Source: Parcubacteria group bacterium
GTDB lineage: Bacteria > Patescibacteriota > Minisyncoccia > Moranbacterales > UBA2206
DNA: 64,000 nt
Reading direction: 5' to 3'
Assembly (NCBI GenBank): GCA_041659505.1
Contig: JBAZYF010000001.1
Location: forward strand, 189,274 to 253,273
Below the pieces are notes generated by a model. The model did no database searches. It was given only the letters and a program-made list of their open reading frames with translations, and was not told the origin of the DNA. Shown piece after piece: positions 8,484-60,444 of the stretch (positions are counted from its first letter, which is position 1; each line of letters opens with the position of its first letter). Made by a program: the position numbers and the translations under genes.

Positions 8484-8543
8484 TAATTTAAGATTTCCCC
8501 AATCAGTGAAATCAGCGTAATCAGTGATAATCAGTGGTTCAGA
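8484..8543. repeat. short tandem AATCAGTG repeats plus partial LamG 3'-flank module (GTGGTTCAGACTACTGG)
   Basis: AATCAGTGAAATCAGCGTAATCAGTGATAATCAGTGG; GTGGTTCAGAC is the reverse complement of TGTCTGAACCAC in the adjacent direct repeat. Confidence 0.55.
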
Positions 8544-11500
8544 CTACTGGAAATTCAACGCGCTAGAATTATTATACAGTTGCTTGACTTGTTCGGCGGT
8601 GAGGGCGTAGTTGAAAATTTTGACTTCGTCGATTTGGCCGGGGAAAAAATAGCCATTATTTGAACTACCTAAATAAAGAGGAACTGAATCGCTGGATACA
8701 ATATTGCCAGTAGCAGCGGCATGATTTCTTGCGATGCCATCAACATAAATATAGACATTCGCTCCATCATAAATTCCCGTAATAAAATGCCAACTATTGT
8801 CCCAAACAATATTTCCTGAATCACCAGAAATAACTCCTCCGCTATTCGTAGTATGGACTCCGAACTGTAAATTTCCCGCACTTCCGGTGTACAATAAGTA
8901 CCCATAGCTCAAAGGAGCATCGCTTTTCCACACTAACCCTTCCCAATTTCCTGGGCTACTACTTTTTGCCCACATTGATACTGTCATACTATTCCCTGTT
9001 ATGTTCAAACTTGAACTATTGCTCACCAATGCCCAATCATCCCCCCCATCAAAATTCAAACTGGCGGCGTATTTTCCGGTTCTTCCATTATACCACGGTG
9101 TATTAGCATTGGCACTACAGGTGCCGGTGGTGGTTTGGCCGGAGGCGCCGAGATTTAATGTGCCGGTGTTGCCATTGCCACTGTCATCATGAATCGCCGT
9201 TCCCTGACACTCATTCATCCGCCACTCGGCAATCGGCCGCCCTTGATTATATTCCCAAGCAATTTGTGCCGGCGTGCGGGCGTAGTTGTAGATGCGGACT
9301 TGGTCGATCTGGCCGCCATAAGGATGCTCCCCGATCTGGCTATTGCCGATAGCGAGACCATAGCCGGTTACTGGAGTTCCGGTGTTTGAAGATCCTGACT
9401 GGGCGCCGTTTATATATAAGGTTCCTGTACCATTGCTTAAGCGCACTCCACAAACATACTGCCAAGTATTCAAATTTAAAGTTTTATCCGAAATTACAGC
9501 GCTAGATCCGTCATCGCTAGTTAAAGCCAAATTAGCTCCGTGATTATAGCTCATGAAAACAAATCTTGAGTTGCTGACTATCCCATCAAAAACATTCTTG
9601 CCCTGTGGTTTTATCCAGGCGCAAACAGTGACGGTGTTGGTGGAAATCAGATCAGTTCCGAGAGCCGCATAATCATCCACCCCATCAAACGTGCAGGCTT
9701 TGCCGACTTTTCCCGGTTGGGTGCAATCCATCCCGGTGTTGTTGGCGCCGTCAACGGTTGTGCCGTTGTTGCCGTTGCCGGAAGTGTCGTTGAGGTTTTT
9801 AGCGTCGCCAGATACTTTTTCATCCATCAGCCATTCCCCCACCGGTGCTGAGCATGTCGAAGTGTCGCCCGGCACGCAATACTGGCGTGAGTCGGAATTG
9901 CTAGGAGCGCCAGCCGAAGTCGTCCCGGAACTCCCCACCACTGCTGAGTAGCCGGAGTTGTAGTCGGATTTGACTTCGTCTTCGGTGAGGGCATAATTAT
10001 ATAATTTGACATCATCAAAAACCCCGCCAGCGTAGGCTGGTGAATTATCGAGCGATCTTCCACCAATAATTATTTTTTGGGCTGTTAGGGATTCAATGTC
10101 TCCCGAAAGAGCAAGGCTCGCTTCCAATTTTCCATTAATAAATATTTTTTTAGTATCACTACTGTCAAAAGAAAATACAAAATGATACCATTGTCCGCTT
10201 TGCATAACTGTTGTCCCAGTAGTATCGTGATAACTACCAATCCAATCACTGAAATGAGCTTTATGATCAGGATCTACAGCAACGACCCACTCACCACCCC
10301 AATCACCGCCATTAAAATATTTTGATATTTCACATGATTCCCCTGCGGTCGGCTTGCACCAATAGGAAACGGAAAATTCCGGACGAGCGCCATATGTTCC
10401 TGCATCGACATAATCATTCGTCCCATCAAAACTAAGCGCCTTGCCGTTTTTGCCGTCATTAGTCCAAGTCGGCGCGGATGATCCGACACCTAAGTTTCCA
10501 GCTAAACTTGCACCGCCATAACCGGAATTATGTGCTACAGAGCCGTAGCCTTCGTTGAAATTGTAATTGGCGATTGGTTGACTATTGCCTCCTCCGCCTG
10601 CTGGCTCCGGCGTGCCAAGCATATCATCCAAAATCTGCTGTTGGGTGCGGGCGTAGTTATATACACGGACGTCGTCGATTAATCCTAGAAAAGGATCCTC
10701 GGAAGGACCACTCGCGATATAAAGATCATAGCTAGTATTACCCACCGCCAAATAACTGCCCCAATCATAAGTGTAGGTATTTACACCGTCTACATAATAG
10801 ACAACCTTATAGCCATCATAGGTGGCAGAAACAAAATGCCATTTTCCATCCGTCACAACAGTTGGCGCATTTTGCGCTCTGAACGTTCCGCCGGAAAGAA
10901 TATACAAATACAACCTGCCCAGAGTATCCGTTCCAAACCACCAGCCATTGTCGTTATAGAGTTGCTTTTTGGCAAATAAATTCCAACCTGCGTGAGAACT
11001 ATTAATCCACATGCCGACCGACACGGTGCCGGAACTTTGCAAGCTGGAACCATTGCCACAATTTATCCAATCATCCACCCCATCAAAATTGCAAGCTGAA
11101 CCAAACTTGCCCGGCACAGTGCAATCCATTCCAGTGGTGTTGGCGCCGTAGTGGGTGGTGCCGTTATTGCCATAAGTCGAATCATCAGCAATCGTTTTTG
11201 CGTCCCCTTGTACTTTTTCATCCATCTTAAGATGCAAGACCGGCCCGGGTGCCCATTCGTAGAGTTTTTTAATTTCAGAAGGAGAAAGCGCGCGGTTGTA
11301 GATACGGGTTTCGTCGATTTTTCCCGGAAAATAATAATTACCTCCACCAATATATTCCCCCATTCTAACATTTGGGGTGAGTAAAGATAACGTAGCCGAA
11401 GTTTGATTATTTTTTTCGCCGTTTAGGTACATAATCAGATTCTTTCCCGAAAAATCATACACTATTGAAAAATGATACCAAGTATTCTGGGTAATTGTTC

Positions 11501-13884: not shown

Positions 13885-13910
13885 GTAGAGACGAGGCACT
13901 GCCTCGTCTT
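13885..13910. repeat. PE copy GTAGAGACGAGGCA-c-TGCCTCGTCTTGG, ~20 nt upstream of the LamG2 ATG
   Basis: on the gene strand: ...CGTCTCTACgggggaataataaaatttgaaaATG. Confidence 0.75.
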
Positions 13911-13945
13911 GGGCATTATTTTTCACCTCGTCTTGGGTTAAATTT
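13900..13945. promoter_or_regulatory. direct-repeat array of CCTCGTCTTGG half-sites (~27-bp spacing, 3 copies including the PE arm) in the LamG2 leader
   Basis: cctcgtcttgggcattatttttcacctcgtcttgggtta; parallels the 4-copy array at 21148-21250. Confidence 0.5.
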
Positions 13946-14179: not shown

Positions 14180-15478
14180 TTATTTTAAATCTAAAAGCCA
14201 TTTCCAAACCGGAACTATTTTGATTTTTTTGCCTTTTATCTCTCGCTTCTCTTCCTGATTCTCGGTGATAATCAGTCCATTTTTAAGCTTAAACTTTTCC
14301 ATCGCTTCCAAGAGTCCCGCCAATTCCCTTTTTTCGTTATTATTATCCAACACCTTCGTCACCTGAATCGCTTCTGTTATTTTTCGTCCTTCTCTGACGA
14401 CAAAATCACATTCATGTTTTTCAAAATGGTAATAGATTTCTTTTCCCGCTTCTAAAAGGCCCAAAAAAACTGTGTTTTCCAAAAAACGGCCAAAATTTTC
14501 ACTAAACGAAAATGAGACTGCACTGATAAAGCTATTGTCGATCGCATAGGCTTTTTTGGGATAATTTTCCTGCTTTTTAAGCGAGTATTGATAGTTAGAC
14601 AGTTCGAACAAGAGAAAAGATTTTTCAAAAAATCCGATATATTCCTTGACGGTCTTATCATTCATCTGCAAAAAATCCGCTAGTGCGTTATAGCTGTACT
14701 TTTGGCCGATGTTGGAAAAAAGGTAGAGCAAAAGATTTTCGATTTCCCGAGTTTTTTTCACTTCAAAGCGCGGAACAATATCTTGATAGAGAATGTTTTT
14801 GTAATAATTGATTAGAATTTCTTGCCTGATTTCCTTCTTCTTTTCCAGGACTATTTCCGGAAAACCGCCAACTTTCAAGTATTCTCCGAAAACTTTTTTT
14901 AATTTTCCTTCGTTTCTTATCTGCTCCACCGCGCTACGCACTTCAATTTTTCTGGCGTCCGCTATTTCCGCCAAATTAAACGGGTAGATCTTTTTGGCAA
15001 TCGATCGGCCGGAAAGTAGTGTAGCCATCTCTGCCGAAAGCAGCCGAGAATTTGATCCGGTAATAAAAAATTTTACCCCGCCTTTCTCATAGAGACTTTT
15101 GACAAAAACTTGCCAATCGGAAAAAAACTGAACTTCATCCAGAAAAACAAACACTTTGCCCTTTGGTTCGACCAGCGCCAAATATTCCTCGAAAATTTTC
15201 GCAAGATTTCCCGGATCATTCTTGAAGCGATTAAGCAAGGGCGATTCCAAATTAAGTAGCAAGATATTTTTTGGTTTGACCTTTTTTTCTTGTATCAAAA
15301 ATTCGATCAATTGCCTGGCAACGGTTGATTTCCCGCTTCTTCGGACGCCCACCAAAGCCACAATTTGCCTGATATTGAGATATTTGACAAGTTCCACGAG
15401 AATTGCCCGCGGAAAGCCAACCTCCAGCGCTGTGCCCGCCCAATGCCTATTTTGCTCAACGATAAATTTTTCAAACAT
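14180..15478 (-). CDS. COG1373-type AAA+ ATPase with DUF4143/PD-(D/E)xK-like C-domain, ATPase2
   Basis: GVRRSGKST Walker A, VFLDEVQF Walker B, C-terminal HECDFVV...EAIQVTK. Confidence 0.8.
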   Translation of the reverse strand: MFEKFIVEQNRHWAGTALEVGFPRAILVELVKYLNIRQIVALVGVRRSGKSTVARQLIEFLIQEKKVKPKNILLLNLESPLLNRFKNDPGNLAKIFEEYLALVEPKGKVFVFLDEVQFFSDWQVFVKSLYEKGGVKFFITGSNSRLLSAEMATLLSGRSIAKKIYPFNLAEIADARKIEVRSAVEQIRNEGKLKKVFGEYLKVGGFPEIVLEKKKEIRQEILINYYKNILYQDIVPRFEVKKTREIENLLLYLFSNIGQKYSYNALADFLQMNDKTVKEYIGFFEKSFLLFELSNYQYSLKKQENYPKKAYAIDNSFISAVSFSFSENFGRFLENTVFLGLLEAGKEIYYHFEKHECDFVVREGRKITEAIQVTKVLDNNNEKRELAGLLEAMEKFKLKNGLIITENQEEKREIKGKKIKIVPVWKWLLDLK

Positions 15479-18600: not shown

Positions 18601-21162
18601 GATGCGGGTTTCGTCGATTTGGCCATCAAAAAAATAAGTAGTCATTTGGCCAATTTGAGCGCCGTTTCCCGAATCAGCTCCAGTATTTATATCTGGAACA
18701 CCTGTTGAAATTCTTGTACCCTGACTCACGCCATTAACAAAAACTTCTTGCAATTTCGTATTACGTTTAAATGTGGCAACAATATGATACCAAGTATCTG
18801 CTTCCATTAACTTAACATTATCAAAATCATCACCATAAAAACCAAAGGTTAGATTATTACTATTACCTCTAATCCCTAATGAAACGCGCCTATCAGTGCC
18901 ATTTGCATCGCCTATGTCAAAAAACCATTGATATCTATCAAGAGTATCTATTTTAATCCATGATTCAATTGAAAAATCGCCCGTATCAAAAGTATTAATA
19001 TATGGTGCTTGCACATAATCATCCACCCCATCAAAACTCCCCCCATTCCCAAATTTTCCTCCGGCGGTCGTGACGCCTCCGGCGGATGTTCCGTTATTAT
19101 TGTTGCCACTGGCATCTTTCACTTCTCCGCTCGTGCCGTTCCAACTCGCTTCGTCCATTTTCCAATAGCCGACCAGGCCGTCGGTCAGCCATTTTGTTGA
19201 CTCTGAACCGAAAGCAGCCGACGCGCCTTGGGGGGCGCTTTGGCTTGCCAAGCCTGCATTATAATCCTGCAAAATCTGCGCTTGCGTGCGGGCGTAGGGG
19301 TAGATTTTAACTTCATCGATATAGCCGGGAAAAAATTCGTGGTAAGAGCCACTTGAATAATAGGCTCCGATGATGACCTGCTGATCATTGACAACATTTA
19401 TACCCCCGCCATATGATCCATTATATTGAGAATCAAACTTGCCATTAATATAAAGCTTCTGATAACCAGTCGTCGCATCGTATGTTGCAGACATATAGTA
19501 CCACTTATTAATTTCCAGTGTCCCACCGACTAAATAGTCTCCGGTTATTACTGGCTGCTCTGTTTCATCCAGAGTGGTATAATAATTGAAAGTATCCAAT
19601 CCTTTATTTACAACAGTCTTAAAATTCGCATTATCCGCTGTCAATTTGATCCAATGACTGACAGTATAGCCATTGGGTGAATCCAGTGAATTACTATCTG
19701 GAATTGTCGCATAAGCGCTGGTTCCGTTGAAATATAGACACCCTCCACTCACACACTCACTCTCCGGCTTCCACGTCGCACCGGTGATGGTGCCGTTGTT
19801 TTTGTTTGATGTTTCGTCGTGCGCCGTTGTGCCTTGGCCTTCGTCGAATGACCAATAGCCGACCGGTCCGCCGGGGCTAGTTTCCTGCTTTCCCGAAACA
19901 GTCAAAAACGCCAATGGATTATTCTGATTAGCATATTCCGTGGCGATCCATTCGGGGTTGCGGACAGTGTTGGAAATTTTAACTTCTTCAATGCTTCCTG
20001 GAAATTGACTTGTATAACCCTGCCTCGCTCCAATAACAAACCCGTTACCAATGTGCCAAGGATCATCAATATCAGTCGGTCCCGCAACAAGATTGCCATT
20101 GATATATAACTTTGCCATATTATCAACGTCTATTGTCGCACAAACATATTGCCACTGGTCAAGTATGATACTGCCATTTGCACTATTTAGAACGCCTCGA
20201 TTATTATAAATGTTTAAATAATAAACCCCACCATCATTACCCATATTAAACTCGAAATCAGCATCACCAATAAATTGAGACATCCAACTATCATCCGCTT
20301 GTGGCTTTATCCAAGCGCAACCCGTTATCGGATAATCATCCAAGTCAACAGCTGTATCCACATAATCATCCCCCCCATCAAAATCCAACCCTTTCCCCAC
20401 TTTCGCGTCAACCGAATCCCCACTCGTCATTGTGCCATTACTTGTTCCATTGTTCGCGTTAGCGGTGGAGTCCAGCATTTGCGGAGCCGTGCCCGAAGGA
20501 TCCTGGTTCATATGTTGGACCATTTTGTAGTTTCCATCCCACACATTCATTTTGTCTTGTTGGCTAGTGGCGGTAGCATTGCCATAGTAAAGATAAATTT
20601 CCGTATCTTTGGCTTGAGTGAGATTGGGTAATTTTACCCAAGCAATGAGGGCGCCAGTGCCGGAGGTGTAGGATTCGATTTCGTGCGAGAGTTTTTTTCC
20701 GGTGGAATCGGTGAATACCAAATCATCGCCGTCTGTTTGAGCACCGGTGATGAGATTGGTGTCCGTGATGGAAACTAGCACCGGAAAGTTTTGCAACTCC
20801 CCTGCCACTTGGGATTTATTGATGGTGATTTTTTTGCGAAATCCCCAAGTGTCGTTCCACCAGGAGGCTTGGGTGTTTCTTCCTGAGAAGAAAAAATAGA
20901 TGGGTAAAATTATGAGGACGAGAAGAATGGCAAGGGCTACTTGCCTGTAAGCCACCCAGTGGCGCAAGCTTGCGCCACCGGGTGGCTTCGGAGAACCGGA
21001 AGTTAAGGTCGGACCTTTTGGGTGCCTAAGGTCCGACCTTAGTTTTTTCAAAAATCTGGCAAATTTAAACAGGCCACGGAGGATGGTTAGCATTGTGCGT
21101 TGGAATTTTTGTTTTAGGGTTGGCATTTTTGAATTTTTTGTTTCCCTGTAGAGACGAGGCAC
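15667..21162 (-). CDS. giant cell-surface protein LamG3: TM + DUF2341 + six LamG domains. The ORF-caller start is a GTG inside a PE; the likely true start is the ATG at ~21126 (MPTLKQKFQR...)
   Basis: N-terminus after residue 12 matches LamG1/2. DUF2341 signature ASWWNDTWGFRKKITINKSQV...NFPVLV...YLYYGN. Six LamG motif repeats; shared C-terminus. Confidence 0.85.
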   Translation of the reverse strand: MPRLYRETKNSKMPTLKQKFQRTMLTILRGLFKFARFLKKLRSDLRHPKGPTLTSGSPKPPGGASLRHWVAYRQVALAILLVLIILPIYFFFSGRNTQASWWNDTWGFRKKITINKSQVAGELQNFPVLVSITDTNLITGAQTDGDDLVFTDSTGKKLSHEIESYTSGTGALIAWVKLPNLTQAKDTEIYLYYGNATATSQQDKMNVWDGNYKMVQHMNQDPSGTAPQMLDSTANANNGTSNGTMTSGDSVDAKVGKGLDFDGGDDYVDTAVDLDDYPITGCAWIKPQADDSWMSQFIGDADFEFNMGNDGGVYYLNIYNNRGVLNSANGSIILDQWQYVCATIDVDNMAKLYINGNLVAGPTDIDDPWHIGNGFVIGARQGYTSQFPGSIEEVKISNTVRNPEWIATEYANQNNPLAFLTVSGKQETSPGGPVGYWSFDEGQGTTAHDETSNKNNGTITGATWKPESECVSGGCLYFNGTSAYATIPDSNSLDSPNGYTVSHWIKLTADNANFKTVVNKGLDTFNYYTTLDETEQPVITGDYLVGGTLEINKWYYMSATYDATTGYQKLYINGKFDSQYNGSYGGGINVVNDQQVIIGAYYSSGSYHEFFPGYIDEVKIYPYARTQAQILQDYNAGLASQSAPQGASAAFGSESTKWLTDGLVGYWKMDEASWNGTSGEVKDASGNNNNGTSAGGVTTAGGKFGNGGSFDGVDDYVQAPYINTFDTGDFSIESWIKIDTLDRYQWFFDIGDANGTDRRVSLGIRGNSNNLTFGFYGDDFDNVKLMEADTWYHIVATFKRNTKLQEVFVNGVSQGTRISTGVPDINTGADSGNGAQIGQMTTYFFDGQIDETRIYNRALSPAEIKKLYQWAPGPVAYWKFDEKTGQNFYNSEQPTGEGVLGTTSSAEAEDPVWTTGKYGSALVFDSSVPDEANFPDSGTNSPYDFQLGKTITISLWVNPEAYAGESNLIFKGATLNENYGFALIGAYPTLYYRRVDNSDWSSWQVASAGVPLNEWSYLTLEYTFGQGSSIKAFLNGNPVSGSWVSGTGNEAPIANDNAGFVFGTSSWDEALKGKMDDVRIYNYARTQQQILEDMLGTPEPAGGGGNGQPIVNYDFNEGYGSVAHNSGLGCRDASQCVSTNANLGVGSSAPTWTNDGKNGKALSFDGVNDYVSVPDSTALRPAALTLSTWIKQNGGGGTMINKAYGTTSGKSYSFSTTCLYAGGTHFEIQTNNGYPYWETPCGTLPYPDNNWHHLVVTFSPVRGDASDSKTYIDGKEIATIYSANGYGAGGSLQYSSDDLNIGRNNSYDPPINYFGGQLDDVKIYPYALTEDEIKTDYNSGASAQWGSAGTAASTGAPTNSAGGEYCVPGDTTACAAPVGEWKMEEKVKGDAKTIYDTSGNGNNGTTHYGANTTGMDCSVPGKAGTACSFDGVDDYADLGNDPSIQLTHTGTVSAWVKFTTSTVNWPAIVGNANWDTDRNGYMLFANGDNPGDFALQLHDSSSYIYIVSDKNGYNDNSWHYVAGTFDGSYLRIYVDGISAATPVAQTLDVVSGVYNLTVGKDPATSADYWTGQIDQVRIYNYARTPAQIAWEYNQGQPVAQWNFDECQGATVHDESLNRNDGTINLGASGQTTAGTCSANADTPWYNGRTGKYGASLNFDGVGDYVNAGSPVALDNMATFSACAWIYPTKTDALIVAKHGLSYFGWDLYIWNTNHLGMSIANTTSDYIALRETPDNLIVFNSWQYVCGVYSGGIGANSVHLFINGEEIVAAYTNRGSGTRIDDSSGDVFMGDNTYSSYPFGGKIDEVKIFNYALTAEQVKQLYNNSSALNFQ
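17747..17774. repeat. PE copy inserted in frame inside the LamG3 CDS (GTAGAGACGCAT-tgcg-ATGCGTCTCTAC)
   Basis: encodes CRDASQCVST. Paralogs LamG1/LamG2 have ..SLAGNLGVGSS.. here with no palindrome; flanking DNA aligns on both sides. Confidence 0.8.
20951..21040. repeat. two further palindromes inserted in frame in the LamG3 N-terminal region: 36-bp palindrome centred on AAGCTT, and a paired AAGGTCGGACCTT/AAGGTCCGACCTT
   Basis: adds ~35 aa (LRSDLRHPKGPTLTSGSPKPPGGASLRHWVAYRQV) absent from LamG1/2/4 between the basic leader and the TM helix. Confidence 0.7.
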
Positions 21163-21172
21163 TGCCTCGTCT
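21148..21172. repeat. PE copy GTAGAGACGAGGCA-c-TGCCTCGTCTTAGG, ~20 nt upstream of the LamG3 ATG
   Basis: gene strand: ...CGTCTCTACagggaaacaaaaaattcaaaaATG. Confidence 0.75.
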
Positions 21173-21250
21173 TAGGTTAATATTTTCACCTCGTCTTGGA
21201 CATTATTTTTCATCTCGTCTTGGGTTAATATTTTCACCTCATCTTGATGT
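21173..21250. promoter_or_regulatory. iteron-like array, ~4 copies of TTAATATTTTCACCTCGTCTTGG (~27-bp period)
   Basis: ttaatattttcacctcgtcttggaca / ttatttttcatctcgtcttgggttaa / tattttcacctcatcttgatg seen directly. Confidence 0.55.
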
Positions 21251-21355: not shown

Positions 21356-22642
21356 TCAGACGGTTTCCAAAATCCACCGCCAGGCCGGAATAATTCGAAT
21401 TTTTTTGCCCTTGATTTTGATTTCCTCTTCCTGATCCATCGTGATGATTGTTCCGGTTTTCAATTTGAATTTCTCCAGCGCTTCAAGAAGACCATCAATT
21501 TCTCGTTGGTGATTCTTTTCATTTAGATTATAACACACTTGGTAGGCTTTTTTTATCTTCAAGCCGTCTTTCACCACAAAATCACATTCATGCTTTTCGC
21601 TGTAATAGAAAATTTCTTGTCCGCTTCGCAGGAGTTCCAAAAAAACCAGGTTTTCCAAATAGCATCCGCTATTTTCTGAAAAAGCAAAACCGATCTTGCC
21701 GACCAGTCCGCTATCAACGCAATAGATCTTGCGCCGGTTGGCATTTTGCTTGTGCAGGGAATAATCAAACTTTTTCAAGTCATAAAACAAATGGGCCTCT
21801 TTCAAAAGTTCCACATATTCTTTGGCGGTATGCTCATGGATATGAAGCATCTTAGCCAAACTGTTGTAGCTAAAAAGGCGAGCGGTGTTGCTGATTAAAA
21901 AATAGGCGGCTTGCTTGAGATTGTATGAATCCCTGATTTCATTATTATCAATGACGTCTTTTAGGATTATCGTTTGATAGTAGGCCTCGAGGACTGCGGC
22001 ATCACCTGTCATGACCGCTACCGGAAAACCTCCTTGACGCAAATATTGCTCAAACAAATTAGCCAGCTTATTTTTGAATGCGAAGTTTTTGGCATAGGAG
22101 GAAAAGAATTCTTGTTTTTTCGCCGTCAAAAATTCCTTGTAGGAAAAAGGAAAGACTGTTTGGGCAAAGTAACGTCCGGACAGGCGCGAAATATATTTTC
22201 CGGCAAGCAAATTCGCGTTAGAACCGGTAATGAAAATTTTTTGGAAAACCCGCGCGTCATATTTCGCCTTAACCCATTTTTCCCAAAACTGGATATTTTG
22301 CACTTCGTCCAGAAACAGATACTTGATTTTTTTGCCGGTTAGCGTTTCAGCTATTTCGATTATTTCGTCTAATTTTTCCGCTTTTTTATAGAAAGATAAA
22401 AAGACCGGGTTATCAAAATTAACCAGCAGGATTTCTTCGGGATGAGTTTTGCACTTAGCCACCAGCTCACTGATCAATAAATTAAAAATTACCGACTTCC
22501 CACTTCTTCTCACACCGGCAATCACTTCAATAAAATCGCTCTTCAGTCTGACTTTTTCCGTGGCCGCTCGAAAAACATAGCCCGCTTCCGCTTGTGTTCG
22601 CCAATGGCTGTTTTGCTCTAAAATTATATTTTTTAAGTCCAT
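21356..22642 (-). CDS. COG1373-type AAA+ ATPase with DUF4143-like C-domain, ATPase3
   Basis: GVRRSGKSV Walker A, LFLDEVQN Walker B, C-terminal HECDFVV. Confidence 0.8.
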   Translation of the reverse strand: MDLKNIILEQNSHWRTQAEAGYVFRAATEKVRLKSDFIEVIAGVRRSGKSVIFNLLISELVAKCKTHPEEILLVNFDNPVFLSFYKKAEKLDEIIEIAETLTGKKIKYLFLDEVQNIQFWEKWVKAKYDARVFQKIFITGSNANLLAGKYISRLSGRYFAQTVFPFSYKEFLTAKKQEFFSSYAKNFAFKNKLANLFEQYLRQGGFPVAVMTGDAAVLEAYYQTIILKDVIDNNEIRDSYNLKQAAYFLISNTARLFSYNSLAKMLHIHEHTAKEYVELLKEAHLFYDLKKFDYSLHKQNANRRKIYCVDSGLVGKIGFAFSENSGCYLENLVFLELLRSGQEIFYYSEKHECDFVVKDGLKIKKAYQVCYNLNEKNHQREIDGLLEALEKFKLKTGTIITMDQEEEIKIKGKKIRIIPAWRWILETV

Positions 22643-22728: not shown

Positions 22729-25700
22729 CTACTGGAAATTGAGCGCGCTGGAATTATTATACAATTGCTTCACTTGTTCGGCGGTGAGGGCGTAGTTGAA
22801 AATTTTGATGTCGTCGATTTGGCCGTTCATTGCATTACCAAATTTTAAATGATCAGGAGAATTTCCGACAGAAGAAGGCCCCATGTCTAATTCACTTGTT
22901 AGTGCCTTATCGACACCGTCAATGTAAACATGATTTATAGTTGGACTGCCAGCTTTCCATGTCCAAGTAAAATGAACCCATTTCTCCTTTTCCCATGTAT
23001 AATCCGTAACCCAGTAATAAGAGGCAACCGCACTGCTTGTTTGTCGAACTGCAACATACGGATGGTTTCCCGTAAAGGATGTGATTATATAACTAGGATT
23101 TGTCTCCCACTTTTCCAGGGGCGTTATTGCTAATGTTGCTCCCGAGCTCAAAAAATACCAAAAAGAAATCGTCAATGAGGTTGCTCCATCTAATAACGAA
23201 ACATCGCCAATATCTGCATAATCATCCCCCCCATCAAAATTCAAACTTGCGGCGTATTTTCCGGTTCTTCCATTATACCATGGCGTGTTGGCGTTGGCAC
23301 TGCAGGTGCCGGTCGTTGTTTGACCGGAGGCGCCAAGGTTGATTGTGCCGTTGTTGCCGTTGCCGGAATTATCGTGCACGGTTCCACCTTGGCATTCGTC
23401 AAATTTCCATTCGGCAATCGGTTTGCCTTGATTATATTCCCAAGCGATTTGCGCCGGTGTGCGGGCGTAGTTGTAGATGCGGACTTGGTCAATAGAACCG
23501 TTTAAAAATGAACCAGAATTAGTGTTGTGGCCAATTTGTATGGGTAAATTGTTTAGCGATGCATTGCAACCACCGGCTCCATCTCCTTTATCTAATAATC
23601 CGTTCAAATAAAATTTCGTACTACTCGGAGTCTCCACTATCGAAAAATGTGTCCACTGATTATTAGGAATTGTATTATTTCCCAAAACCCAGCCGGTGAC
23701 ATCGGAATAAAATATCAAGCGACCGTCATCATGATTCGTCGCCAGATACCATCGTTGGCCACTGCCTGATTGTTGATTGATAAAATAGTTATTTTGTGAC
23801 CTTATTGCCGCTTTAATCCAACCGCTGACTGTAAAACTAGAACTGCCTATGCTGAAATTTCCTGTGTCTGTAGCATCATCCACCCCATCAAACGAACAAG
23901 CGCTACCGACTTTTCCTGGGACGGTGCAATCCATTCCGGTGTTGTTGGCGCCGTCGTTGGTGGTGCCGTTGTTTCCGTTGCCGGAGGTGTCATAGATCGT
24001 TTGGGCATCGCCCGCCACTTTTTTATCCATCAGCCATTCCCCCACCGGTGCCGCACAAGGCTCAGTCGAACCCGGCACGCAATAGACGCCAGAAGTTGAA
24101 TTGGTCGGTGAGCCAGTCGTTGCAACTGTCCCCGCCGAACCCCACTGCGCCGAAGCACCGGAGTTGTAGTCAGTTTTAATTTCGTCTTCGGTGAGAGCGT
24201 AGGGGTAGATTTTGACGTCGTCGAAAAGCGCGTTAGTATAATATGAATTTGCATTACTATTGGCTATGCGCAAGCTTCTTCCAGCATTATTCACACTCAC
24301 TGTCCCAATGCTAGTCGTTTTTTTGTTTTTCCCATCTACATATAGTTTCAGATTTGTGCCTTCCCGTAAGCCAACCACATGATACCAATTATTTAGAGAA
24401 TGAGTGTCTGGATCGACAACTGTATAGCTTGTTGATCCACTTTCAATTGCGAAAAAAAATTTATCAGTCTCCCCGTCTGAACAAAGATTTATTACCCATT
24501 CATTATTTCCCGGTGAAGATCCGGTATCCCATTTATTAACTCCCCAAACATTATTCCAATTAGAACAAGCTGATTTTTTATTAACCCAAAAAGAGACCGA
24601 AAAATCATTGGCGCCAAAATCTAAAAGAGCATTGTCCGGCACTTCCGCATAATCATCATCCCCATCAAACTCCACGGCTTTGCCATTTTTTCCATTTTTC
24701 TCCCACATTAAAGCTACGCTATTATTAGCGCCGCCTCCAGCGATTAGGTTGGCATTTAATACTGCTCCGCCATAACCAAAATTATGCGCCACTGAGCCGT
24801 AGCCTTCGTTGAAATTGTAATGGGCGATTGGCTGACCATTGCCTCCTCCGCCTGCTGGCTCCGGCGTGCCAAGCATATCCTCCAAAATCTGCTGTTGCGT
24901 GCGAGCGTAGTTGTAGATGCGGACGTCATCGATTTGGCCACCGCAATAACCACCCCAATCATCCCGTCCAATTCTTAATTCTTGGCCACTATCGGAAACA
25001 TATGCACCGACACCATTTTGTTGGGATTGATAACCAGTCACTTTTGTGCCATCAAGATAAATCGATACACCCGAAACATCATCTCCTCCTAAAAAAGACA
25101 CCGCCACAAAATGAGATTTTCCATCTCCAGGAATTACCGAGTTAGTTACGATCCTTAAATCCGTATCACGGTTAATCCCGAATTGAATACGGCCTGCTTC
25201 ATCTGCTGTAAGGTACCACGAAACATTATTCGAAGCTCCTTTGGTTAAAAAAGGAACGTAATCGGTGCTATTCTTTACCCAGGCACTAGCGGAAAAAGTT
25301 TTTTGTGACAAATCAATCATCGCCACTGGGTTGGGAACAGAAACATAATCATCCACCCCATCAAAGTTACAGGATGAGCCAAACTTCCCCGGCGTGGTGC
25401 AATCCATTCCGGTGGTGTTAGCGCCGTAGTGGGTGGTGCCGTTGTTGCCATAGGTGGAATCATCGGCGAGGGTTTTTGCGTCGCCTTGAACTTTTTCATC
25501 CATCTTGAGGTGCAAGACCGGACCGGGTGCCCACTCGTAGAGTTTTTTAATTTCATCAGGCGAAAGCGCGCGGTTGTAGATGCGGGTTTCGTCGATTTGG
25601 CCATTGAAATCATATGGCGCATTATCACTTATTCCACCTATTTGAAATCGTGAGTCGCCCTCCCAATTCAGCGCTCCAACACTATTACTATTATCATACT

Positions 25701-27990
25701 GCCCATTAATATAAAGTTTCTGACTAGTAGAATCTGACACTAAAACTACATGGGTCCATTTTCCTACAATGTTACCCGATGTAATTGAATTCAGATTATG
25801 ATTTGAACCATCATAAATATTTGATACTACTACTCCGGACGATGTAATACCTACCCACGCATCTGATGAAGCCACATTCACTGCTCTATTATTAGAAACG
25901 CCGCTGGGTGCTACGGACGGCTTTATCCAGGTAGATATTGTTATATTAGGGAAAAGCGCCGGGCTCATTGGATTTTTTATTACATAATCATCCACCCCAT
26001 CAAAACTCCCCCCATTCCCAAACTTTCCCCCGGCGGTTGTGGCGCCTCCGGCAGATGTTCCGTTATTATTGTTACCGCTAGCATCAATCACTTCCCCACT
26101 CGTGCCGTTCCAAAGACTCTCGTCCATTTTCCAATAACCGACCAGGCCGTCGGTGAGCCATTTGCTTGACTCTGAACCGAAAGCAGCCGACGCGCCTTGG
26201 GGGGCGCTTTGGCTTGCCAAGCCTGCATTATAATCCTGCAAAATCTGCGCTTGCGTGCGGGCGTAGGGGTAGATTTTTGGTTCGTCAATGGAGCCGGAAA
26301 AGAAATCATAATATCCGCCCTGATCATCCGCGCCGACAACAACCTTATTAGAATTAGAAATAATGGCACCACTAGGATTTCCGGTATTAACATCCTGTTT
26401 TCCATTAATATACATCTTGCACATTGATCCATCGTAAGTCGCCATTATATGATACCAAGTATTTACCGATAATGCAGTAGCGGAAGTTATATAAACTGTC
26501 CAGCCACCCTCTGATGTTTTTAAAAGAAATAAAACATTTCCATCGGAATTTATGTCTATTTTATATTCTTGCTCTTTGCCAGCAATTACATAAATATTTC
26601 CTAGCGAAGGAGTTGCATTTATTTTTACCCAAGCTCCAATAGTAAGGGTAGAAAGTCCACTTAAGCCAGTTGCATTACCCATATCCACATAATCACTCGT
26701 CCCATCAAATCCCAAACACTTCCCACTCACACACTCACTCTCCGGCTTCCACGTTGCACCGGTGATGGTGCCGTCGTTACTGCTTGAACTTTCATCGTGG
26801 GCAGTCGTTCCTTGGCCTTCGTCGAATGACCAATAGCCAACCGGTCCGCCGGGACTTTGTTCCACTTTTCCACTGACCGACAAAAACGCCGAAGGGTTGT
26901 TTTGATTGGCATATTCGGTGGCGATCCATTCGGGGGTGCGGACGGAATTGGAAATTTTTACTTCTTCAATATTTCCTGGAAATTGACTTGTATAACCCTG
27001 CCTCGCTCCAATAACAAACCCGTTGCCAGCGTGCCAAGGATCATCAATATCAGTCGGCCCCGCAACAAGACCGCCATTGATATATAACTTTGCCATATTA
27101 TCAACGTCTATTGTCGCACAAACATATTGCCACTGATCAAGTATGATGCTGCCAAATGCACTATTTAGACCGCCTCGATTATTATAAATGCTTAAATAAT
27201 AAGCCCCACTATCATTACCCATATTAAACTCGAAATCAGCATCACCAATAAATTGAGACATCCAATTATCATCCGTTTGTGGCTTTATCCAGGCACAACC
27301 CGTAATCGGATAATCATCCAAGTCAACAGTCGTATCAACATAATCATCCGTCCCATCAAAATCCAACCCCTTCCCCACTTTCGCGTCAACCAAATCCCCA
27401 CTCGTCATTGTTCCGCCCGAAGTTCCATTATTAGCATTGCTCGTCGAATCAGTCATCTGCGGAGCAGTGCCCGAAGGATCCTGATTCATATGTTGCACCA
27501 TCTTGAAATTTCCATCCCACACATTTGTTTTGTCTTGCTGGCTCGTCGCCGTAGCATTGCCGTAATAAAGATAAATTTCCGTGTCTTTGGCTTTGGTTAA
27601 ATTTGGCAATTTTACCCAAGCAACCAGAGCGCCCGTGCCGGAAGTATAAGATTCAATTTCGTGCGACAGTTTTTTGCCGGTGGAATCCGTGAACACCAAA
27701 TCATCGCCGTCGGTTTGTGCGCCGGTGATGAGGTTGGTGTCGGTGATGGAAACGAGGACAGGAAAGTTTTGCAGTTCGCCCGCCACCTGAGATTTGTTGA
27801 TGGTGATTTTTTTTCTGTAGCCCCAGGTGTCGTTCCACCAGGAGGCTTCGGTGTTTCGGCCGGAGAAGAAAAAATAGATGGGTAAAATTATGAGGACAAT
27901 TAAAACAAGCGACAACAAAGCACGCTTTTTGCGAGGAGAGAAAAGACGGCGGGTGTAATTTTTAATTTTGAATTTTGAATTTTGAAACAA
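22729..27990 (-). CDS. giant cell-surface protein LamG4: TM + DUF2341 + six LamG domains; 5' end atypical (TTG start inside a repeat, conserved MPTLKQKF leader missing)
   Basis: DUF2341 block nearly identical to LamG3. Shared C-terminus. No in-frame ATG before the TM helix; the N-terminus is encoded by the AATTTTGAA repeats. Confidence 0.75.
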   Translation of the reverse strand: MFQNSKFKIKNYTRRLFSPRKKRALLSLVLIVLIILPIYFFFSGRNTEASWWNDTWGYRKKITINKSQVAGELQNFPVLVSITDTNLITGAQTDGDDLVFTDSTGKKLSHEIESYTSGTGALVAWVKLPNLTKAKDTEIYLYYGNATATSQQDKTNVWDGNFKMVQHMNQDPSGTAPQMTDSTSNANNGTSGGTMTSGDLVDAKVGKGLDFDGTDDYVDTTVDLDDYPITGCAWIKPQTDDNWMSQFIGDADFEFNMGNDSGAYYLSIYNNRGGLNSAFGSIILDQWQYVCATIDVDNMAKLYINGGLVAGPTDIDDPWHAGNGFVIGARQGYTSQFPGNIEEVKISNSVRTPEWIATEYANQNNPSAFLSVSGKVEQSPGGPVGYWSFDEGQGTTAHDESSSSNDGTITGATWKPESECVSGKCLGFDGTSDYVDMGNATGLSGLSTLTIGAWVKINATPSLGNIYVIAGKEQEYKIDINSDGNVLFLLKTSEGGWTVYITSATALSVNTWYHIMATYDGSMCKMYINGKQDVNTGNPSGAIISNSNKVVVGADDQGGYYDFFSGSIDEPKIYPYARTQAQILQDYNAGLASQSAPQGASAAFGSESSKWLTDGLVGYWKMDESLWNGTSGEVIDASGNNNNGTSAGGATTAGGKFGNGGSFDGVDDYVIKNPMSPALFPNITISTWIKPSVAPSGVSNNRAVNVASSDAWVGITSSGVVVSNIYDGSNHNLNSITSGNIVGKWTHVVLVSDSTSQKLYINGQYDNSNSVGALNWEGDSRFQIGGISDNAPYDFNGQIDETRIYNRALSPDEIKKLYEWAPGPVLHLKMDEKVQGDAKTLADDSTYGNNGTTHYGANTTGMDCTTPGKFGSSCNFDGVDDYVSVPNPVAMIDLSQKTFSASAWVKNSTDYVPFLTKGASNNVSWYLTADEAGRIQFGINRDTDLRIVTNSVIPGDGKSHFVAVSFLGGDDVSGVSIYLDGTKVTGYQSQQNGVGAYVSDSGQELRIGRDDWGGYCGGQIDDVRIYNYARTQQQILEDMLGTPEPAGGGGNGQPIAHYNFNEGYGSVAHNFGYGGAVLNANLIAGGGANNSVALMWEKNGKNGKAVEFDGDDDYAEVPDNALLDFGANDFSVSFWVNKKSACSNWNNVWGVNKWDTGSSPGNNEWVINLCSDGETDKFFFAIESGSTSYTVVDPDTHSLNNWYHVVGLREGTNLKLYVDGKNKKTTSIGTVSVNNAGRSLRIANSNANSYYTNALFDDVKIYPYALTEDEIKTDYNSGASAQWGSAGTVATTGSPTNSTSGVYCVPGSTEPCAAPVGEWLMDKKVAGDAQTIYDTSGNGNNGTTNDGANNTGMDCTVPGKVGSACSFDGVDDATDTGNFSIGSSSFTVSGWIKAAIRSQNNYFINQQSGSGQRWYLATNHDDGRLIFYSDVTGWVLGNNTIPNNQWTHFSIVETPSSTKFYLNGLLDKGDGAGGCNASLNNLPIQIGHNTNSGSFLNGSIDQVRIYNYARTPAQIAWEYNQGKPIAEWKFDECQGGTVHDNSGNGNNGTINLGASGQTTTGTCSANANTPWYNGRTGKYAASLNFDGGDDYADIGDVSLLDGATSLTISFWYFLSSGATLAITPLEKWETNPSYIITSFTGNHPYVAVRQTSSAVASYYWVTDYTWEKEKWVHFTWTWKAGSPTINHVYIDGVDKALTSELDMGPSSVGNSPDHLKFGNAMNGQIDDIKIFNYALTAEQVKQLYNNSSALNFQ

Positions 27991-27994
27991 GTCT

Positions 27995-28339
27995 TTAATC
28001 TTTTAATTTTGAAACAATTTTACCGAATATCAAGGTTAGCTCTTGGCATTCTTTCCAAACATTTTTGAGTTCTTCTTTTTTACTTGGTTCGCATTCTGCT
28101 AGCATGCGCAACCAGTGTTTTGTTTCTTGCGTTTCTTTTTTGGAGATAAAAATTTTATTTCTAAAATCTTTTTTCGAACTAGCCGCGTTGGCTTCCATAT
28201 AGTTAGCACCAATACTAGTTGCGGAACGAACTATTTGATTGATAATTGGCTTATTAATGGAATCTTGTTTTATATTTTTGCATAACTTGATGACTTCTAG
28301 GCCAAATTTTGCCGTACGCTCTTCTAAATCATATACCAT
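27995..28339 (-). CDS. four-helix-bundle protein of the 23S rRNA intervening-sequence protein family (Avd-like)
   Basis: RSATSIGANYMEA...SKKDFRNKIFISKKETQETKHWLRML matches the conserved core of this family (PF05635/TIGR02436); 114 aa. Confidence 0.75.
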   Translation of the reverse strand: MVYDLEERTAKFGLEVIKLCKNIKQDSINKPIINQIVRSATSIGANYMEANAASSKKDFRNKIFISKKETQETKHWLRMLAECEPSKKEELKNVWKECQELTLIFGKIVSKLKD

Positions 28340-28515
28340 AAATTTAAATCTTAATTTTGAATTTTTAAGCTCGAATTTTGAAATAATTTTTTAATTTTCA
28401 AATGTTTCAAAATTAATTCATTCGAGTTTGTTTCAAAATTAAGAATTCGAAATTCAAAATTAACTTAGTTTATTCGAGTTTGTTTCAAAATTCAAAATTC
28501 GAAATTCAAAATTAA
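28340..28515. repeat. AT-rich array of AATTTTGAA / TTCAAAATT repeats including a ~48-bp tandem duplication (28411-28455 / 28459-28510)
   Basis: seen directly; similar repeats at 27961-28020 flank the other side of the Avd-like gene. Confidence 0.7.
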
Positions 28516-31500
28516 CTACTTCTCCTCCACAATCCACCAGTTGACTTTCACGCTGCCGATGATCGGGTCGGAACATTTGATTTTGAATCCGGTGTACTCG
28601 CCGGTGACAACGTCGGTTTGTTTTTCCACCCAGACGCGTCCGCCGGCGTCGCCTTCGGGGGTGATAAAAATCTTGGTCGTCGCGCTAACGGCGGTCGTAT
28701 CAATCTTTACGGTCTTGCCATCTGACGCGGATATGATTTCCTCCTCGGTGACCGGCACATCGCAAATTCCGTTTTTCATAATCTTTCCGGCTTCACAAAT
28801 CACCACATCACCTAAGGTTTTCTTGGCCGCATCCACGATTTTCACGCTGAACGCTCCCGCCACGACGCTTTCCGCTTCCAGTTGGCCATTGAGAAGGATC
28901 GAATTGGCCGTGATACTGCCAGCCGTAATTTTTCCGTTCACAAAACTTAGATTAATTTCCCCTGTTTCCTTGTTAATATCCAGCGCATCGGCAAAATCCA
29001 TTACGCCTTGCGCTTGCACTTTCAGATCATCCATCTGCGTCTGGAGAGCCAGAAGGTCGCCAGATTGTTGGCTCAACTGCGCCTGCAAGTCTGCGATTTG
29101 CTGCGTCTGAGTTTCCAGATTCTGTGTGTCGGCAGTGATGCTGGAAAGTGTCTCCCCGATCAGTTGTAGTTTATTATCCACACTCAAAGATTGATCAGCC
29201 AGTTGACCGGTCAATTGGGCGACGATCTGGTTTTGATTTTGGGTGATGCTGGCAATCTGGGTTTCTTGCTGTTTAACTTGGCTGGAAAGGGCAATTGGAT
29301 TATTTATTCCACCGATCTGACCGAGCAGATATTTGGTCACTTCATTGATGGAAGAAACGGAAGCCGACAGATCGCGCTCTCCATTGGAAGCTAAAATGAA
29401 ATCGCTCAGCTTGGAGTGATCAAGCTGATTGGTCGAATCATTTTCGTCATACTCCCCATCCGGCAAACGTTGCATCGACAGCACTGCTTCGTAAGCCTGG
29501 TCGAGCGTTTTTGGATAAGCGGTGCGGTCAGTGATGGTGAGGGCGGACAGATTGGCGGTGGTATAGATGTCACCGACGACATAGAGCTTGGAAGTTGGAT
29601 CAGTTGTGCCGATGCCGACGTTGCCGGTTACTGTATCAATCCGCATTTTCTCTACTGAAGAAATATCATTAATAGTGACCAAACCTGCTTTCAAACTCAT
29701 TATATAGTCAGACGTATTGCTAAAAGTCAATGAGCCAACATCTTCGGCGCCGGGATATCCAAAATAGATTCCGGAACTGTAATATTGCTGAGAAGTCAGC
29801 ATCAACTCAGCATATCCATTGTAATTTGCAACTTGTACCTTTGCCATTGGATTCGTCGTCCCAATTCCCACATTTCCACTTGCATTAACATTAAAGCGTG
29901 AGCCGTTGATTTGGATGTCATCGTTGATGATTACTTCGCCCAAGTTGGCTGCAGACAGCGTCAGGTCAAGATTTTGCCAAGACGAATCAGTGGCGATATT
30001 GCCCGGGCCTTGGAACAGCAGATTGCCAGTATCTTCATTGGTGAGTAATAGATCATTGGCAAAGGAAACGTTGCCAGCCGAAGCAAACGACACGGGATTG
30101 GAGAAGGTTGTTTGTGCGCCACTGACCGTCATCACGTCTGTGCCGGCATAATCCAGTGTGAGTAGATTGCCCAGGCCATCACTGCGAATATATAGTCCGC
30201 CGGCGGATGCGGTGGTGGCGGAGTTATAGAAAGAACTGAGATAGCTATCGACTGATCCGGCTAGTTGCAGTTTGTAGCTTGGCGCGGTGGTGCCGATGCC
30301 GACGTTGCCAGCTATTAATGTTCCTATCGAATTCCCCTGAGTTCCATTTCCAATTGCCAGTACACCGCTAGATAATCGAGAAAGTCCAATATCTAATGTT
30401 CCCGCGTAACCGCCTTGCGACCAAGCAATTGAACTTGTGCTTGAAAGCTGTATTCCATTAGAATCAAGGTTCGCAGCAGAACCGCCATTTACGCTAGCGG
30501 CGTATAAATTTCCACTGGCGTTAAAATAGGTAACGACAGATCCGGTATTATTTTTAATCTCCAATAAATTCGTACTGCTCTGTCCAATCCCGGCTTGTAC
30601 GATAAAAGTAGTAGCACCGGTTTGATTCTCAATTCTAGAATTACCATTCACATCCAAAGCATACCCCGGATTCGTCGTTCCAATCCCCACATTCCCACTT
30701 CCCGTAATCAAAGCGAAATTATTATCCGCGCCTGACGCACTGAAATATCCGCCAATCGCAGTCGATGTTCCGCCGGTGTCGCCGGTGACGTTGGAATAGA
30801 TGCCGTAGGAATTAATTGTTCCGCCGGTGGCTCCGGTTCTGGAAAGGGCTTGATAGAGTCCGTAAGTTGTGTCGACTCCGGTGGTGACAATGCCGGTGTT
30901 ACTCAATGTTTGATAGATGCCATAGTTTGTTCCCGGGGCGGTGGTGCCGATGTTTAGGTTGTTTTGCAAAGTGTCATCGACAACCACAAATCCGTCGTTG
31001 GCGGCTGAGAGCGTCAAGTTGAGATTTTGCCAGCTGGATTCCGTGACAACATAACCCGGACCTTTGAAGCGGATATTGCCGGCGGTTGCATTGGTAAGAA
31101 GTAAGTCATTTGATAGCGACACATTGCCGGCCGAAGCAAACGAGACGGGATTGGAGAAAGTTGTTTGTGCGCCAGTGACCGTCATCACGTCCGATCCGGC
31201 ATAGTTTAAAGTCAAAAGACTGCCGAGGCCATCGCCACGGACATAGAGACCACCAGCCGAGTTTCCGGTGTTGGAATTGTAGAGATAACTCAAGTAGTTG
31301 TCGGTTGAACCGGTGACGTGAAGTTTGTAGGTTGGTGCGGTAGTGCCGATTCCGATGTTGCCGGAAGCATCAATGCGCATTCTTTCTGATCCGGATGTGT
31401 CTAAATTAATAAATCCATCATTGTGCGTAGTGTTATCTCCAGAACTTATGAACCACGAATAAGCACCATTAGGTGTCTGACCCCCAGAGCCGATACCACC

Positions 31501-60151: not shown

Positions 60152-60338
60152 AAAAACAAAATTAGTCCGAATTAATAATACAAACTCCAAAATTTACTCC
60201 AGTTTACCAGCCTACAACAAATCATAAATAAGTTAACCAACGAACTCGTCCGCTGTAGCCTTAGCGAAGGCGGATTAAATCCTGACGTTCTAAATTATAC
60301 CAGTCACCAGCTTATCCTGCAACCCGATAAGAATACAC

Positions 60339-60386: not shown

Positions 60387-60392
60387 ACAAAA

Positions 60393-60428: not shown

Positions 60429-60444
60429 GCGTTTCAAAGAAATA

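Follow-up and report, generated by a model that had tools for sequence, protein, structure and literature searches.

A palindromic cassette with a four-helix-bundle gene between inverted heptamer arrays recurs across Patescibacteria

The intervening sequences (IVSs) of bacterial 23S rRNA, described from Coxiella burnetii, Leptospira and Brucella (PMC4990558), are the closest known counterparts of the element reported here. In the Coxiella IVS, inverted repeats at the termini make up a 28-bp stem, GACAGAT heptamers lie upstream of an S23p open reading frame (ORF), and RNase III cuts the element out; the ORF itself was reported to be decaying and is probably untranslated (PMC4990558). We analyzed a 64-kb stretch of contig JBAZYF010000001.1 from a Parcubacteria group bacterium (hereafter the window) and found in it a palindromic cassette whose 114-aa ORF belongs to the same family (PF05635/TIGR02436). 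As in the IVS, the ORF occupies the loop of a terminal-inverted-repeat stem (28 bp in Coxiella, about 35 bp in the cassette), tandem heptamers lie upstream of the ORF, and the element is embedded in a host transcript, in the case of the cassette a predicted one. Unlike the IVS, the cassette lies between protein-coding genes and not in helix 9, 25 or 45 of 23S rRNA, strong purifying selection acts on its ORF, in contrast to the decay reported for the Coxiella ORF, it has ORF-less miniature copies, and RNase III excision is ascribed to it by analogy only. The cassette is one of a large family of palindromic cassettes with a four-helix-bundle gene in Patescibacteria, and the copy in the window is an IVS-type hairpin cassette set within protein-coding operons. 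Full-text literature searches turned up no description of it.

Short palindromic repeats offer a second comparison. MITEs (miniature inverted-repeat transposable elements), the Correia elements of Neisseria (Correia repeat enclosed elements, CREE) and the repetitive extragenic palindromes and bacterial interspersed mosaic elements (REP/BIME) are likewise short palindromes present in multiple near-identical copies at unrelated intergenic sites, and are often cotranscribed with neighboring genes; Correia elements are, in addition, reported to be RNase III substrates. The cassette differs from them in having arms built of tandem heptamer arrays where they have unique terminal inverted repeats; no target duplication, TA or other, was seen with it, and in its full-length form a nonenzymatic four-helix-bundle gene takes the place of a transposase. 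A third comparison is with intergenic heptanucleotide repeats of unexplained function, those of heterocystous cyanobacteria being known as short tandemly repeated repetitive (STRR) sequences. Examples from other surveys are GGGAATC in Xanthomonas and GGGGAYT in Nostoc (PMC4692102), and TAACTGA in Beggiatoaceae, Cyanobacteria and Bacteroidetes (PMC4679880). Such repeats also form period-7 tandem arrays, often directly upstream of start codons, they occur in the same phyla as relatives of the cassette protein, and in Xanthomonas about 70 pairs are convergent, that is, inverted (PMC4692102). Their heptamers are different, however, and the arrays of the cassette are paired around a specific gene; the terms “S23”, “four helix” and “intervening” (sequence) have zero occurrences in either paper (PMC4692102, PMC4679880).

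All genes around the cassette are on the minus strand, and the features of the locus, in window coordinates, are as follows.

28516-49575, minus strand: giant gene of 7019 aa, whose TAG stop (28516-28518) immediately abuts the left arm.
28480-28515, minus strand: outer left arm, about five AATTTYG heptamers followed by GAAACAA, forming an inverted repeat with 27956-27990.
28428-28463, minus strand: second left-arm copy, part of a 52-nt tandem duplication (28410-28461 and 28462-28513).
28351-28386, minus strand: right-arm-like segment inside the cassette, 78% complementary to 28428-28463.
27995-28339, minus strand: 114-aa four-helix-bundle gene of the 23S-IVS/S23p family (PF05635, TIGR02436).
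27956-27990, minus strand: right arm, the reverse complement of the left arm, holding the TTG start and the first ~11 codons of LamG4.
22729-27990, minus strand: LamG4, a 1753-aa DUF2341/Laminin_G_3 surface protein whose N terminus is encoded by the right arm.

The cassette spans 560 bp (27956-28515) between the giant gene and LamG4, is present once within the window, and stands out by its base composition, the GC content being 22-33% at 27900-28500 against ~50% in both flanks. The initial annotation had reported arrays of the repeat AATTTTGAA on both sides of the gene. These arrays are real and confined to this spot in the window, and are described more sharply as arrays of the heptamer AATTTYG, the two sides being inverted copies of each other. 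The two arms (27956-27990 and 28480-28514) are 94% complementary over 35 nt, and the inverted repeat that they make encloses the gene. On the left side, the two 52-nt tandem copies are 90% identical, the second left-arm copy is 89% complementary to the right arm, and the segments 28351-28386 and 28428-28463 together make a mini-hairpin that has no ORF and sits between the outer left arm and the four-helix-bundle gene. Arm-like sequence is also present at the 3′ end of this gene. In the predicted minimum-free-energy RNA fold of the 591-nt region (−125.6 kcal/mol, z = −4.69), the outer arms form the closing stem. Rfam gave no match at E ≤ 1 around the cassette and none at gathering score across the whole window.

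Placing the 114-aa ORF in the 23S-IVS four-helix-bundle family, as had been proposed from the DNA alone, proved correct, with scores above the curated thresholds for both PF05635 (E 4e-19, 69.2 bits, cutoff 33.8) and TIGR02436 (E 1.5e-24, 86.3 bits, cutoff 24). An AlphaFold2 model built from 24 homologs has four helices (residues 6-21, 29-51, 56-83 and 85-113) at a mean predicted local distance difference test score of 94.5, and so models as the expected bundle. Its best Foldseek match in the PDB was BT_0352 (2RLD; 31% identity, template modeling (TM) score 0.82-0.87), followed by Xcc0516 (2GSC; TM 0.71-0.84). These are the closest solved relatives of the cassette protein and were compared by protein alone, a hairpin and heptamer context being undescribed for them in the literature searched. 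Avd, the accessory variability determinant of diversity-generating retroelements (DGRs), has the same four-helix-bundle fold and ranked only after these two (4DWL and 8UB7; 11-13% identity, TM 0.70-0.77). The sequence profile found 2RLD at E 1e-16 and did not reach Avd at E ≤ 1. The kinship with Avd that had been suggested earlier therefore stands at the level of a distantly shared fold and not at that of detectable sequence, and we regard the protein as a stand-alone member of the IVS-type family rather than an Avd ortholog. PADLOC gave no match that would assign the protein a defense role. Homologs comprise at least 7997 clusters at 90% identity (E ≤ 1e-5); the closest among the matches listed, at 75-85% identity, belong to Parcubacteria, Moranbacteria, Jorgensenbacteria and further groups.

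To place the locus in a wider context, we compared 12 metagenome loci, representing two contexts, and 80 loci from GTDB species representatives spanning Parcubacteria, Microgenomates, Saccharibacteria, Kazan, Berkelbacteria and Doudnabacteria. An arm, the ORF and a complementary arm followed one another around nearly every ORF (about 70 of the 80 genome loci). The arm alignment score was at least 14 in 68 of 79 loci, where the median arm measured 35 nt (interquartile range 31-40), five heptamer lengths being the modal arm size; across all 79 loci, the median was 34 nt at 84% identity. The mean duplex energy of the arms was −31.5 kcal/mol compared with −17.1 kcal/mol for shuffled controls. Autocorrelation of the flanks peaked at lag 7 (0.50-0.53) and at lag 14, with values of ~0.27 in control DNA, and period-7 arrays exceeded the threshold in 71% of the intergenic regions beside the gene versus 23% of the other intergenic regions of the same loci (p = 2e-17).

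Arms and ORF are inherited together. The arms fall into two types, AATTTTG...CAAAATT (G-type) and AATTTTC...GAAAATT (C-type), which agreed between the two sides of a cassette without a single mixed case (22 G/G, 47 C/C), and the nearest protein relative had the same arm type in 65 of 70 comparisons (permutation mean 38, maximum 54). Between copies, the median synonymous difference (pS) was 0.86 and the median nonsynonymous difference (pN) 0.21, dN/dS was ~0.1, and synonymous sites were saturated (dS > 2 or undefined in 96% of pairs), from which we conclude that the protein is functional and old. Over the same time span, the noncoding arms have kept both their heptamer form and their complementarity, which argues that they are functional too.

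The genes beside the cassette are heterogeneous and include T2SSF, O-antigen ligase, glycosyltransferases, SHMT, ATP synthase, DprA, RF-1, EF-Tu, DNA polymerase III delta′, pilins and LamG proteins. The upstream neighbor was codirectional in 62 of 75 loci, with stop-to-ATG distances clustering at 38-46 nt, just the length of the arm, and the downstream neighbor in 61 of 80 loci, at a median gap of 58 nt. Homologs are thus scattered in unrelated contexts, the surroundings differing in nearly every genome. This pattern bears on the possibility that the ORF is simply a vertically inherited resident gene, equipped with an AT-rich promoter and terminator hairpins of its own and no part of any cassette. 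Saturated synonymous sites would fit such a history, as would conserved positions between related genomes (L065 and L067, L046 and L083, and L001-L006 across samples) and the correlation of coding-sequence GC with that of the flanks (r = 0.73). We nevertheless consider a resident gene very unlikely: besides the shifting context, within-genome paralogs lie in unrelated flanks, ORF-less copies of the arms have multiplied, the GC of the coding sequence is ~10 points below that of the flanks, and the arms are not terminator-like, the sole terminator-like match of the region lying outside the cassette on the opposite strand.

Copies within single genomes delimit the unit. Loci L024 and L026, from one genome, share 95.3% identity across 575 nt that run precisely from one outer arm to the other, within unrelated flanks; L019 and L030, from a second genome, are 82% identical over 455 nt. 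ORF-less hairpins of ~100 nt made of the same arms were found around the paralogous copies and in eight further loci; a strict regular expression had missed these mini elements, and a tolerant scan, which also picked up the nested mini-hairpin region of the window, found them. The 20-mer AATTTTGAATTTTGAAACAA from the window occurred at 97 places in metagenomes, none of them with the four-helix-bundle ORF and 25 of them mini-hairpins with a median length of 126 nt. Within unrelated flanks, four minis (L106, L108, L119 and L115), of which two share a contig, are 95-100% identical over ~113 nt. Judging from these sequences, gene-less miniature derivatives appear to have multiplied recently. A selfish cassette had been one of two readings offered in the initial annotation, and it holds insofar as gene and arms form a conserved unit with arm-bounded paralogs and ORF-less derivatives; it does not hold as a simple insertion, which cannot explain the LamG4 locus.

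At that locus, LamG4 lacks a part that its paralogs share. LamG1-3 start with a 26-aa leader, MP(K/T)LKQKFQR...F(K/R)FA(K/R)F, placed before a transmembrane helix. LamG4 aligns to them only from the equivalent of “KRIFRSKK” onward, so that the leader is absent and the transmembrane helix kept. The predicted TTG start of LamG4 (27988-27990) falls within the right arm, 4 nt past the stop codon of the four-helix-bundle gene, the right arm encodes FQNSKFKIKN, and the first in-frame ATG is codon 164. The missing leader, the repeat-encoded N terminus and the candidate TTG start that had been noted at first sight were all borne out, and in three further assemblies of this organism the gene callers likewise begin the 1753-aa protein at the arm TTG. 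Neither side of the cassette retains the leader or the original spacer, which excludes a simple insertion as the event.

Starts of this kind are not restricted to the window, where the right arm is of the G-type. Among C-type right arms, 25 of 49 contain ATGAAAAYT, and in seven of them this ATG opens a real downstream gene, giving N termini such as MKIENWKLKI followed by a signal peptide, a membrane anchor or a prepilin motif (a LamG protein in L034; prepilins in L051, L080 and L086; L060, L068 and L025). Other codons within the right arm begin LamG proteins in L036 and L062 and a prepilin in L088. The ATG is created by a mismatch at the inner end of C-type arms, which depart there consistently from complementarity (left CAATCAATTT versus right reverse-complement CATTGAATTT, for example in L034, L035, L050 and L062). 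An N-terminal hydrophobic segment is predicted in 35 of 57 downstream codirectional neighbors, compared with 84 of 280 other ORFs of the same loci (odds ratio 3.7, p = 1.4e-5). By these predictions, exported-protein genes starting inside the right arm are a recurrent pattern and not a one-off disruption. The earlier suggestion that an insertion had disrupted the 5′ end of LamG4 is accordingly retained for the lost leader, and abandoned as regards a simple insertion, since arm-internal starts recur elsewhere.

Taken together with the IVS precedent, these features lead us to favor, with confidence a little better than even, an IVS-like hairpin cassette that would be cotranscribed with its neighbors, carry the four-helix-bundle gene in its loop and have its arms processed by RNase III. 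In the window, the cassette would fill the whole space from the stop of the giant gene to codon 12 of LamG4, having replaced the original spacer and the first 26 codons of LamG4. Transcription would come by read-through from the giant gene, the cassette having no reliable promoter of its own. The arms would pair in the transcript into an AU-rich duplex of ~35 bp, long enough for RNase III, which, by analogy with the 23S rRNA IVS elements, would cut the duplex, thereby freeing the four-helix-bundle mRNA and separating the flanking cistrons. With tandem heptamers on either side, the arms would stay complementary whatever the register, and LamG4 would be translated from the arm TTG, probably via translational coupling to the upstream stop. 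No Shine-Dalgarno-like sequence was noticed by eye upstream of the four-helix-bundle ORF.

Several results weigh against this account. RNA-level pairing and cleavage of the arms rest on the predicted fold and on the IVS analogy. A scan of the region for promoter-like sites was at chance level (3 sites against 2.4 expected), so an internal promoter is conceivable. G:U-compatible mismatches were not enriched in the sense transcript (69 versus 87 antisense, p = 0.17), and duplex energies were equal on the two strands (41 versus 38 loci); given this lack of strand asymmetry, the pairing of the arms could matter at the DNA level instead. In the 98 related loci, conserved rRNA motifs were absent and no cassette was inside or close to an rRNA gene, so the analogy with IVSs rests on ORF homology and shared architecture. 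At LamG4, TTG codons 25 and 26 are further in-frame start candidates, the arm TTG being the predicted start. As to mobility, no target-site duplication was found in the flanks of 79 full-length copies and the four near-identical minis, a weak negative without an empty site. No transposase was present among the listed neighbor families, the four-helix-bundle gene being the only ORF of full-length copies. A clean empty site was not found either, the nearest approach being a looser presence/absence comparison in a syntenic neighborhood (surface protein ... TPR protein), where L096 lacks the cassette that L001 and L007 both have. Mobility is for these reasons deduced from the distribution of the cassettes and the boundaries of their copies.

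Strand symmetry is also what would be seen if the cassette were a mobile element at the DNA level only, with arms serving as terminal inverted repeats for a transposase or recombinase encoded elsewhere, the gene a passenger and RNA pairing incidental. The sharp arm-to-arm boundaries of paralogs and minis in unrelated flanks agree with this, as does the two-sided covariation of the arms, expected if one protein binds both ends, and for the arm subtype of the window minis outnumber ORF copies (25 to none among the exact 20-mer matches). Yet neither a target-site duplication nor a transposase in or next to the elements was seen, a passenger gene is unlikely to keep a dN/dS of ~0.1 or to be coinherited with arm type across many lineages, and the same protein family sits in RNase III-processed 23S rRNA stems (PMC4990558). 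We think this explanation unlikely when taken alone. It is compatible with hairpin processing, the two not being exclusive, and mobility calls in either event for some step at the DNA level.

For the window itself, the giant gene offered no empty site: the protein database contains no close ortholog of its C terminus (best 37% identity). Over its last ~260 aa (28516-29300, minus strand), the giant protein is homologous to the C termini of Moranbacteria Peptidase_S74 “tail fiber domain-containing” proteins, and NWWI(V/L)E(E/D)K is the common C-terminal end of the giant protein and these relatives (L001, L096 and L097). NWWIVEEK, shared by the window and L001, was considered as an upstream C terminus carried by the cassette and was rejected, the motif being present in the cassette-free L096 and L097. 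With respect to carriage by phages, the family patterns retrieved no relative from IMG/VR, and GenBank phages yielded two distant matches only (37-41% identity).

The second reading in the initial annotation was that of a DGR remnant or satellite acting in trans on the neighboring surface proteins, that is, that the protein is an Avd working with a reverse transcriptase (RT) and a template repeat (TR) encoded elsewhere. The distantly shared Avd fold and the surface proteins encoded next to the cassette speak in its favor, and DGRs are common in these lineages. However, the observation that the window holds no RT and no pair of template and variable repeat (VR) was confirmed by Pfam, motif scan and self-BLAST alike. 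Pfam found no RT among the scanned window ORFs of at least 150 aa, a set leaving out the giant gene and ORFs overlapping annotated genes, and the DGR-RT hallmark motif was absent from open frames of at least 200 aa in the window and in the 98 related loci. RVT_1 was not among the 25 families listed for either set of neighbor genes, and Pfam scans of 122 neighbor genes listed no RT. Self-BLAST of the window gave 556 high-scoring segment pairs, of which the sole A-biased pair consisted of 5 mismatches between the 3′ ends of LamG1 and LamG2; no initiation of mutagenic homing (IMH) sequence was found either. With downstream genes starting a median of 58 nt past the stop, there is no room for a TR. 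The arrangement of Avd beside TR and RT is not found here; the neighbors are instead unrelated housekeeping and envelope genes, the cassette adjoining EF-Tu, SHMT and ATP synthase in other genomes. The DGR reading of the cassette is not supported by these results, which cover the window and the related loci, nor by the profile search that fails to reach Avd, and we judge it extremely unlikely.

The association of this protein family with heptamer arrays extends beyond Patescibacteria. Plasmid-borne relatives with 33-41% identity were found in Anabaena, Pseudanabaena, Nostoc, Planktothrix, Euhalothece, Bernardetia, Chondrinema, Treponema and “Chlorohelix”. Period-7 arrays lay beside the ORF in all nine loci from outside Patescibacteria (Cyanobacteria, Bacteroidota, Spirochaetota and Chloroflexota), and in eight of the nine they were significant by shuffling (p ≤ 0.01) in at least one flank. 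The heptamers differ: Treponema has GGAAAGT/GGAGAGC, Nostoc CAATTCG/CGAATTG, Euhalothece CAGTGAC/GTCACTG and Planktothrix CGTAAAT. Planktothrix and Bernardetia seem to have direct, not inverted, arrays on the two sides. Most plasmid relatives lie between codirectional genes, such as csx2 and cas1, RND adaptor and RND permease, or helicase and N6-methylase. Settings within operons were noted for Anabaena pANACY.01 (L196), Pseudanabaena pPg_04 (L197), Chlorohelix (L200) and Chondrinema (L201); in Anabaena, the gene is between cas2 and cas1 on the opposite strand. A figure legend of a CRISPR survey lists “23S rRNA IVP” among its abbreviations for CRISPR-linked genes (PMC10910872).

These arrays raise the possibility that the heptamers are binding sites of the four-helix-bundle protein, a homopentameric ring sitting on about five heptamers of single-stranded RNA or DNA with one protomer per unit; in this reading, the protein would control its cassette together with the neighboring genes, or favor the element's spread. 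We rate both the binding and this consequence as quite improbable. The numbers are suggestive, the median arm of 35 nt being 5 × 7 with five units modal, the 2RLD entry having five chains, and the Xanthomonas S23p having been described as a homopentamer of four-helix bundles (PMC4990558). Differing heptamers in period-7 arrays beside the relatives in all nine loci outside Patescibacteria, and heptamers in the Coxiella IVS as well (PMC4990558), point the same way. Residue 106 (window about 28022-28024) furthermore tracks arm type without exception across 70 cassettes: all 24 of the G-type have Gly and all 46 of the C-type have Gln, His or Asn, including cassettes whose nearest protein relative is of the opposite arm type; overall protein identity is almost equal within and between arm types (0.69 versus 0.67). 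Against this, the correlation could be a clade marker or reflect a nucleotide-level constraint, conceivable because the 3′ end of the ORF contains arm-like sequence, and binding itself is proposed from sequence. Intergenic regions that lack a nearby four-helix-bundle gene contain heptamer arrays as well, and such arrays have been attributed to polymerase slippage (PMC4692102).

Examples of gene-free arrays in Patescibacteria are those at L070:2270-2358, L054:4591-5100, L079:1771-1905 and L066:336-415 (CAACxxA/TTGTAGG, GAAGCAC, CCCTAAN and CTACxxx); they lie in intergenic regions with no adjoining four-helix-bundle gene, have quite different sequences, and are in some cases inverted.

Other features of the window concern the LamG genes and their surroundings. 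The Logan contigs L094 and L095, from the same organism, both end exactly 127 nt past the stop codon of the four-helix-bundle gene, at about the point from which LamG4 and LamG3 are near-identical; the paralog repeat probably broke the assembly there. The leader of LamG3 (20940-21044, minus strand) contains an in-frame, GC-rich palindromic insertion of ~105 nt (AAGGTCGGACCTTAGG..., CCACCCGGTGGCGCAAGCTTGCGCCACTGGGTGG) that is absent from LamG1, LamG2 and LamG4 and looks like a second, unrelated small palindromic element within coding sequence. Upstream of LamG2 and LamG3 (13890-13936 and 21153-21199, minus strand), repeated CCAAGACGAGGTGAAAA motifs are followed by the hairpin GACGAGGCAGTGCCTCGTC, which together could be a regulatory or terminator module shared by the LamG paralogs. 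The 3′ ends of LamG1 and LamG2 (2129-2237 and 8537-8645) are 95% identical over 109 nt, far above the gene bodies, which suggests recent gene conversion between the paralogs. Three AAA_14/DUF4143 ATPase genes (250-1632, 14180-15478 and 21356-22642, minus strand) alternate with the LamG genes, the last of them matching the PADLOC candidate phage-defense family PDC-S01 (E 2e-110). Farther away, a 249-aa ORF at 52544-53293 has the Mur ligase middle domain only and may be a truncated or split gene, and the 1.8 kb at 59796-61577 contain no ORF of at least 150 aa and no Rfam match.

The family to which the cassette protein belongs is huge, is annotated everywhere as “four helix bundle protein” without known function, and includes the ORFs of the 23S rRNA IVSs. 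The present analysis shows that, in Patescibacteria, the gene and its inverted heptamer-array arms travel together as a unit, that this unit has MITE-like derivatives, and that period-7 arrays lie beside its relatives in at least four other phyla. The cassette unit gives a concrete form to the old, unproven idea of IVS elements as mobile DNA. In annotation, it explains odd AT-rich starts such as “MKIENWKLKI...” in pilins and LamG proteins of the candidate phyla, as well as assembly breaks at such loci. It further points to a possible protein partner for the heptanucleotide repeats, so far unexplained, of bacterial intergenic regions, and a family-wide link of S23p-type proteins with heptanucleotide repeats is likely. 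Going further, and as a speculation that we hold to be unlikely in its full form, the S23p/IVS protein and inverted heptamer arrays may be one ancient two-part system across many phyla, in which a pentameric ring would recognize about five heptamers per arm and the protein would be the dedicated factor of enzyme-less hairpin mobile elements. If true, this system would connect the origin of the 23S rRNA IVSs, the function of the four-helix-bundle family and the abundant heptanucleotide repeats of Xanthomonas, cyanobacteria, Beggiatoaceae and Bacteroidetes.

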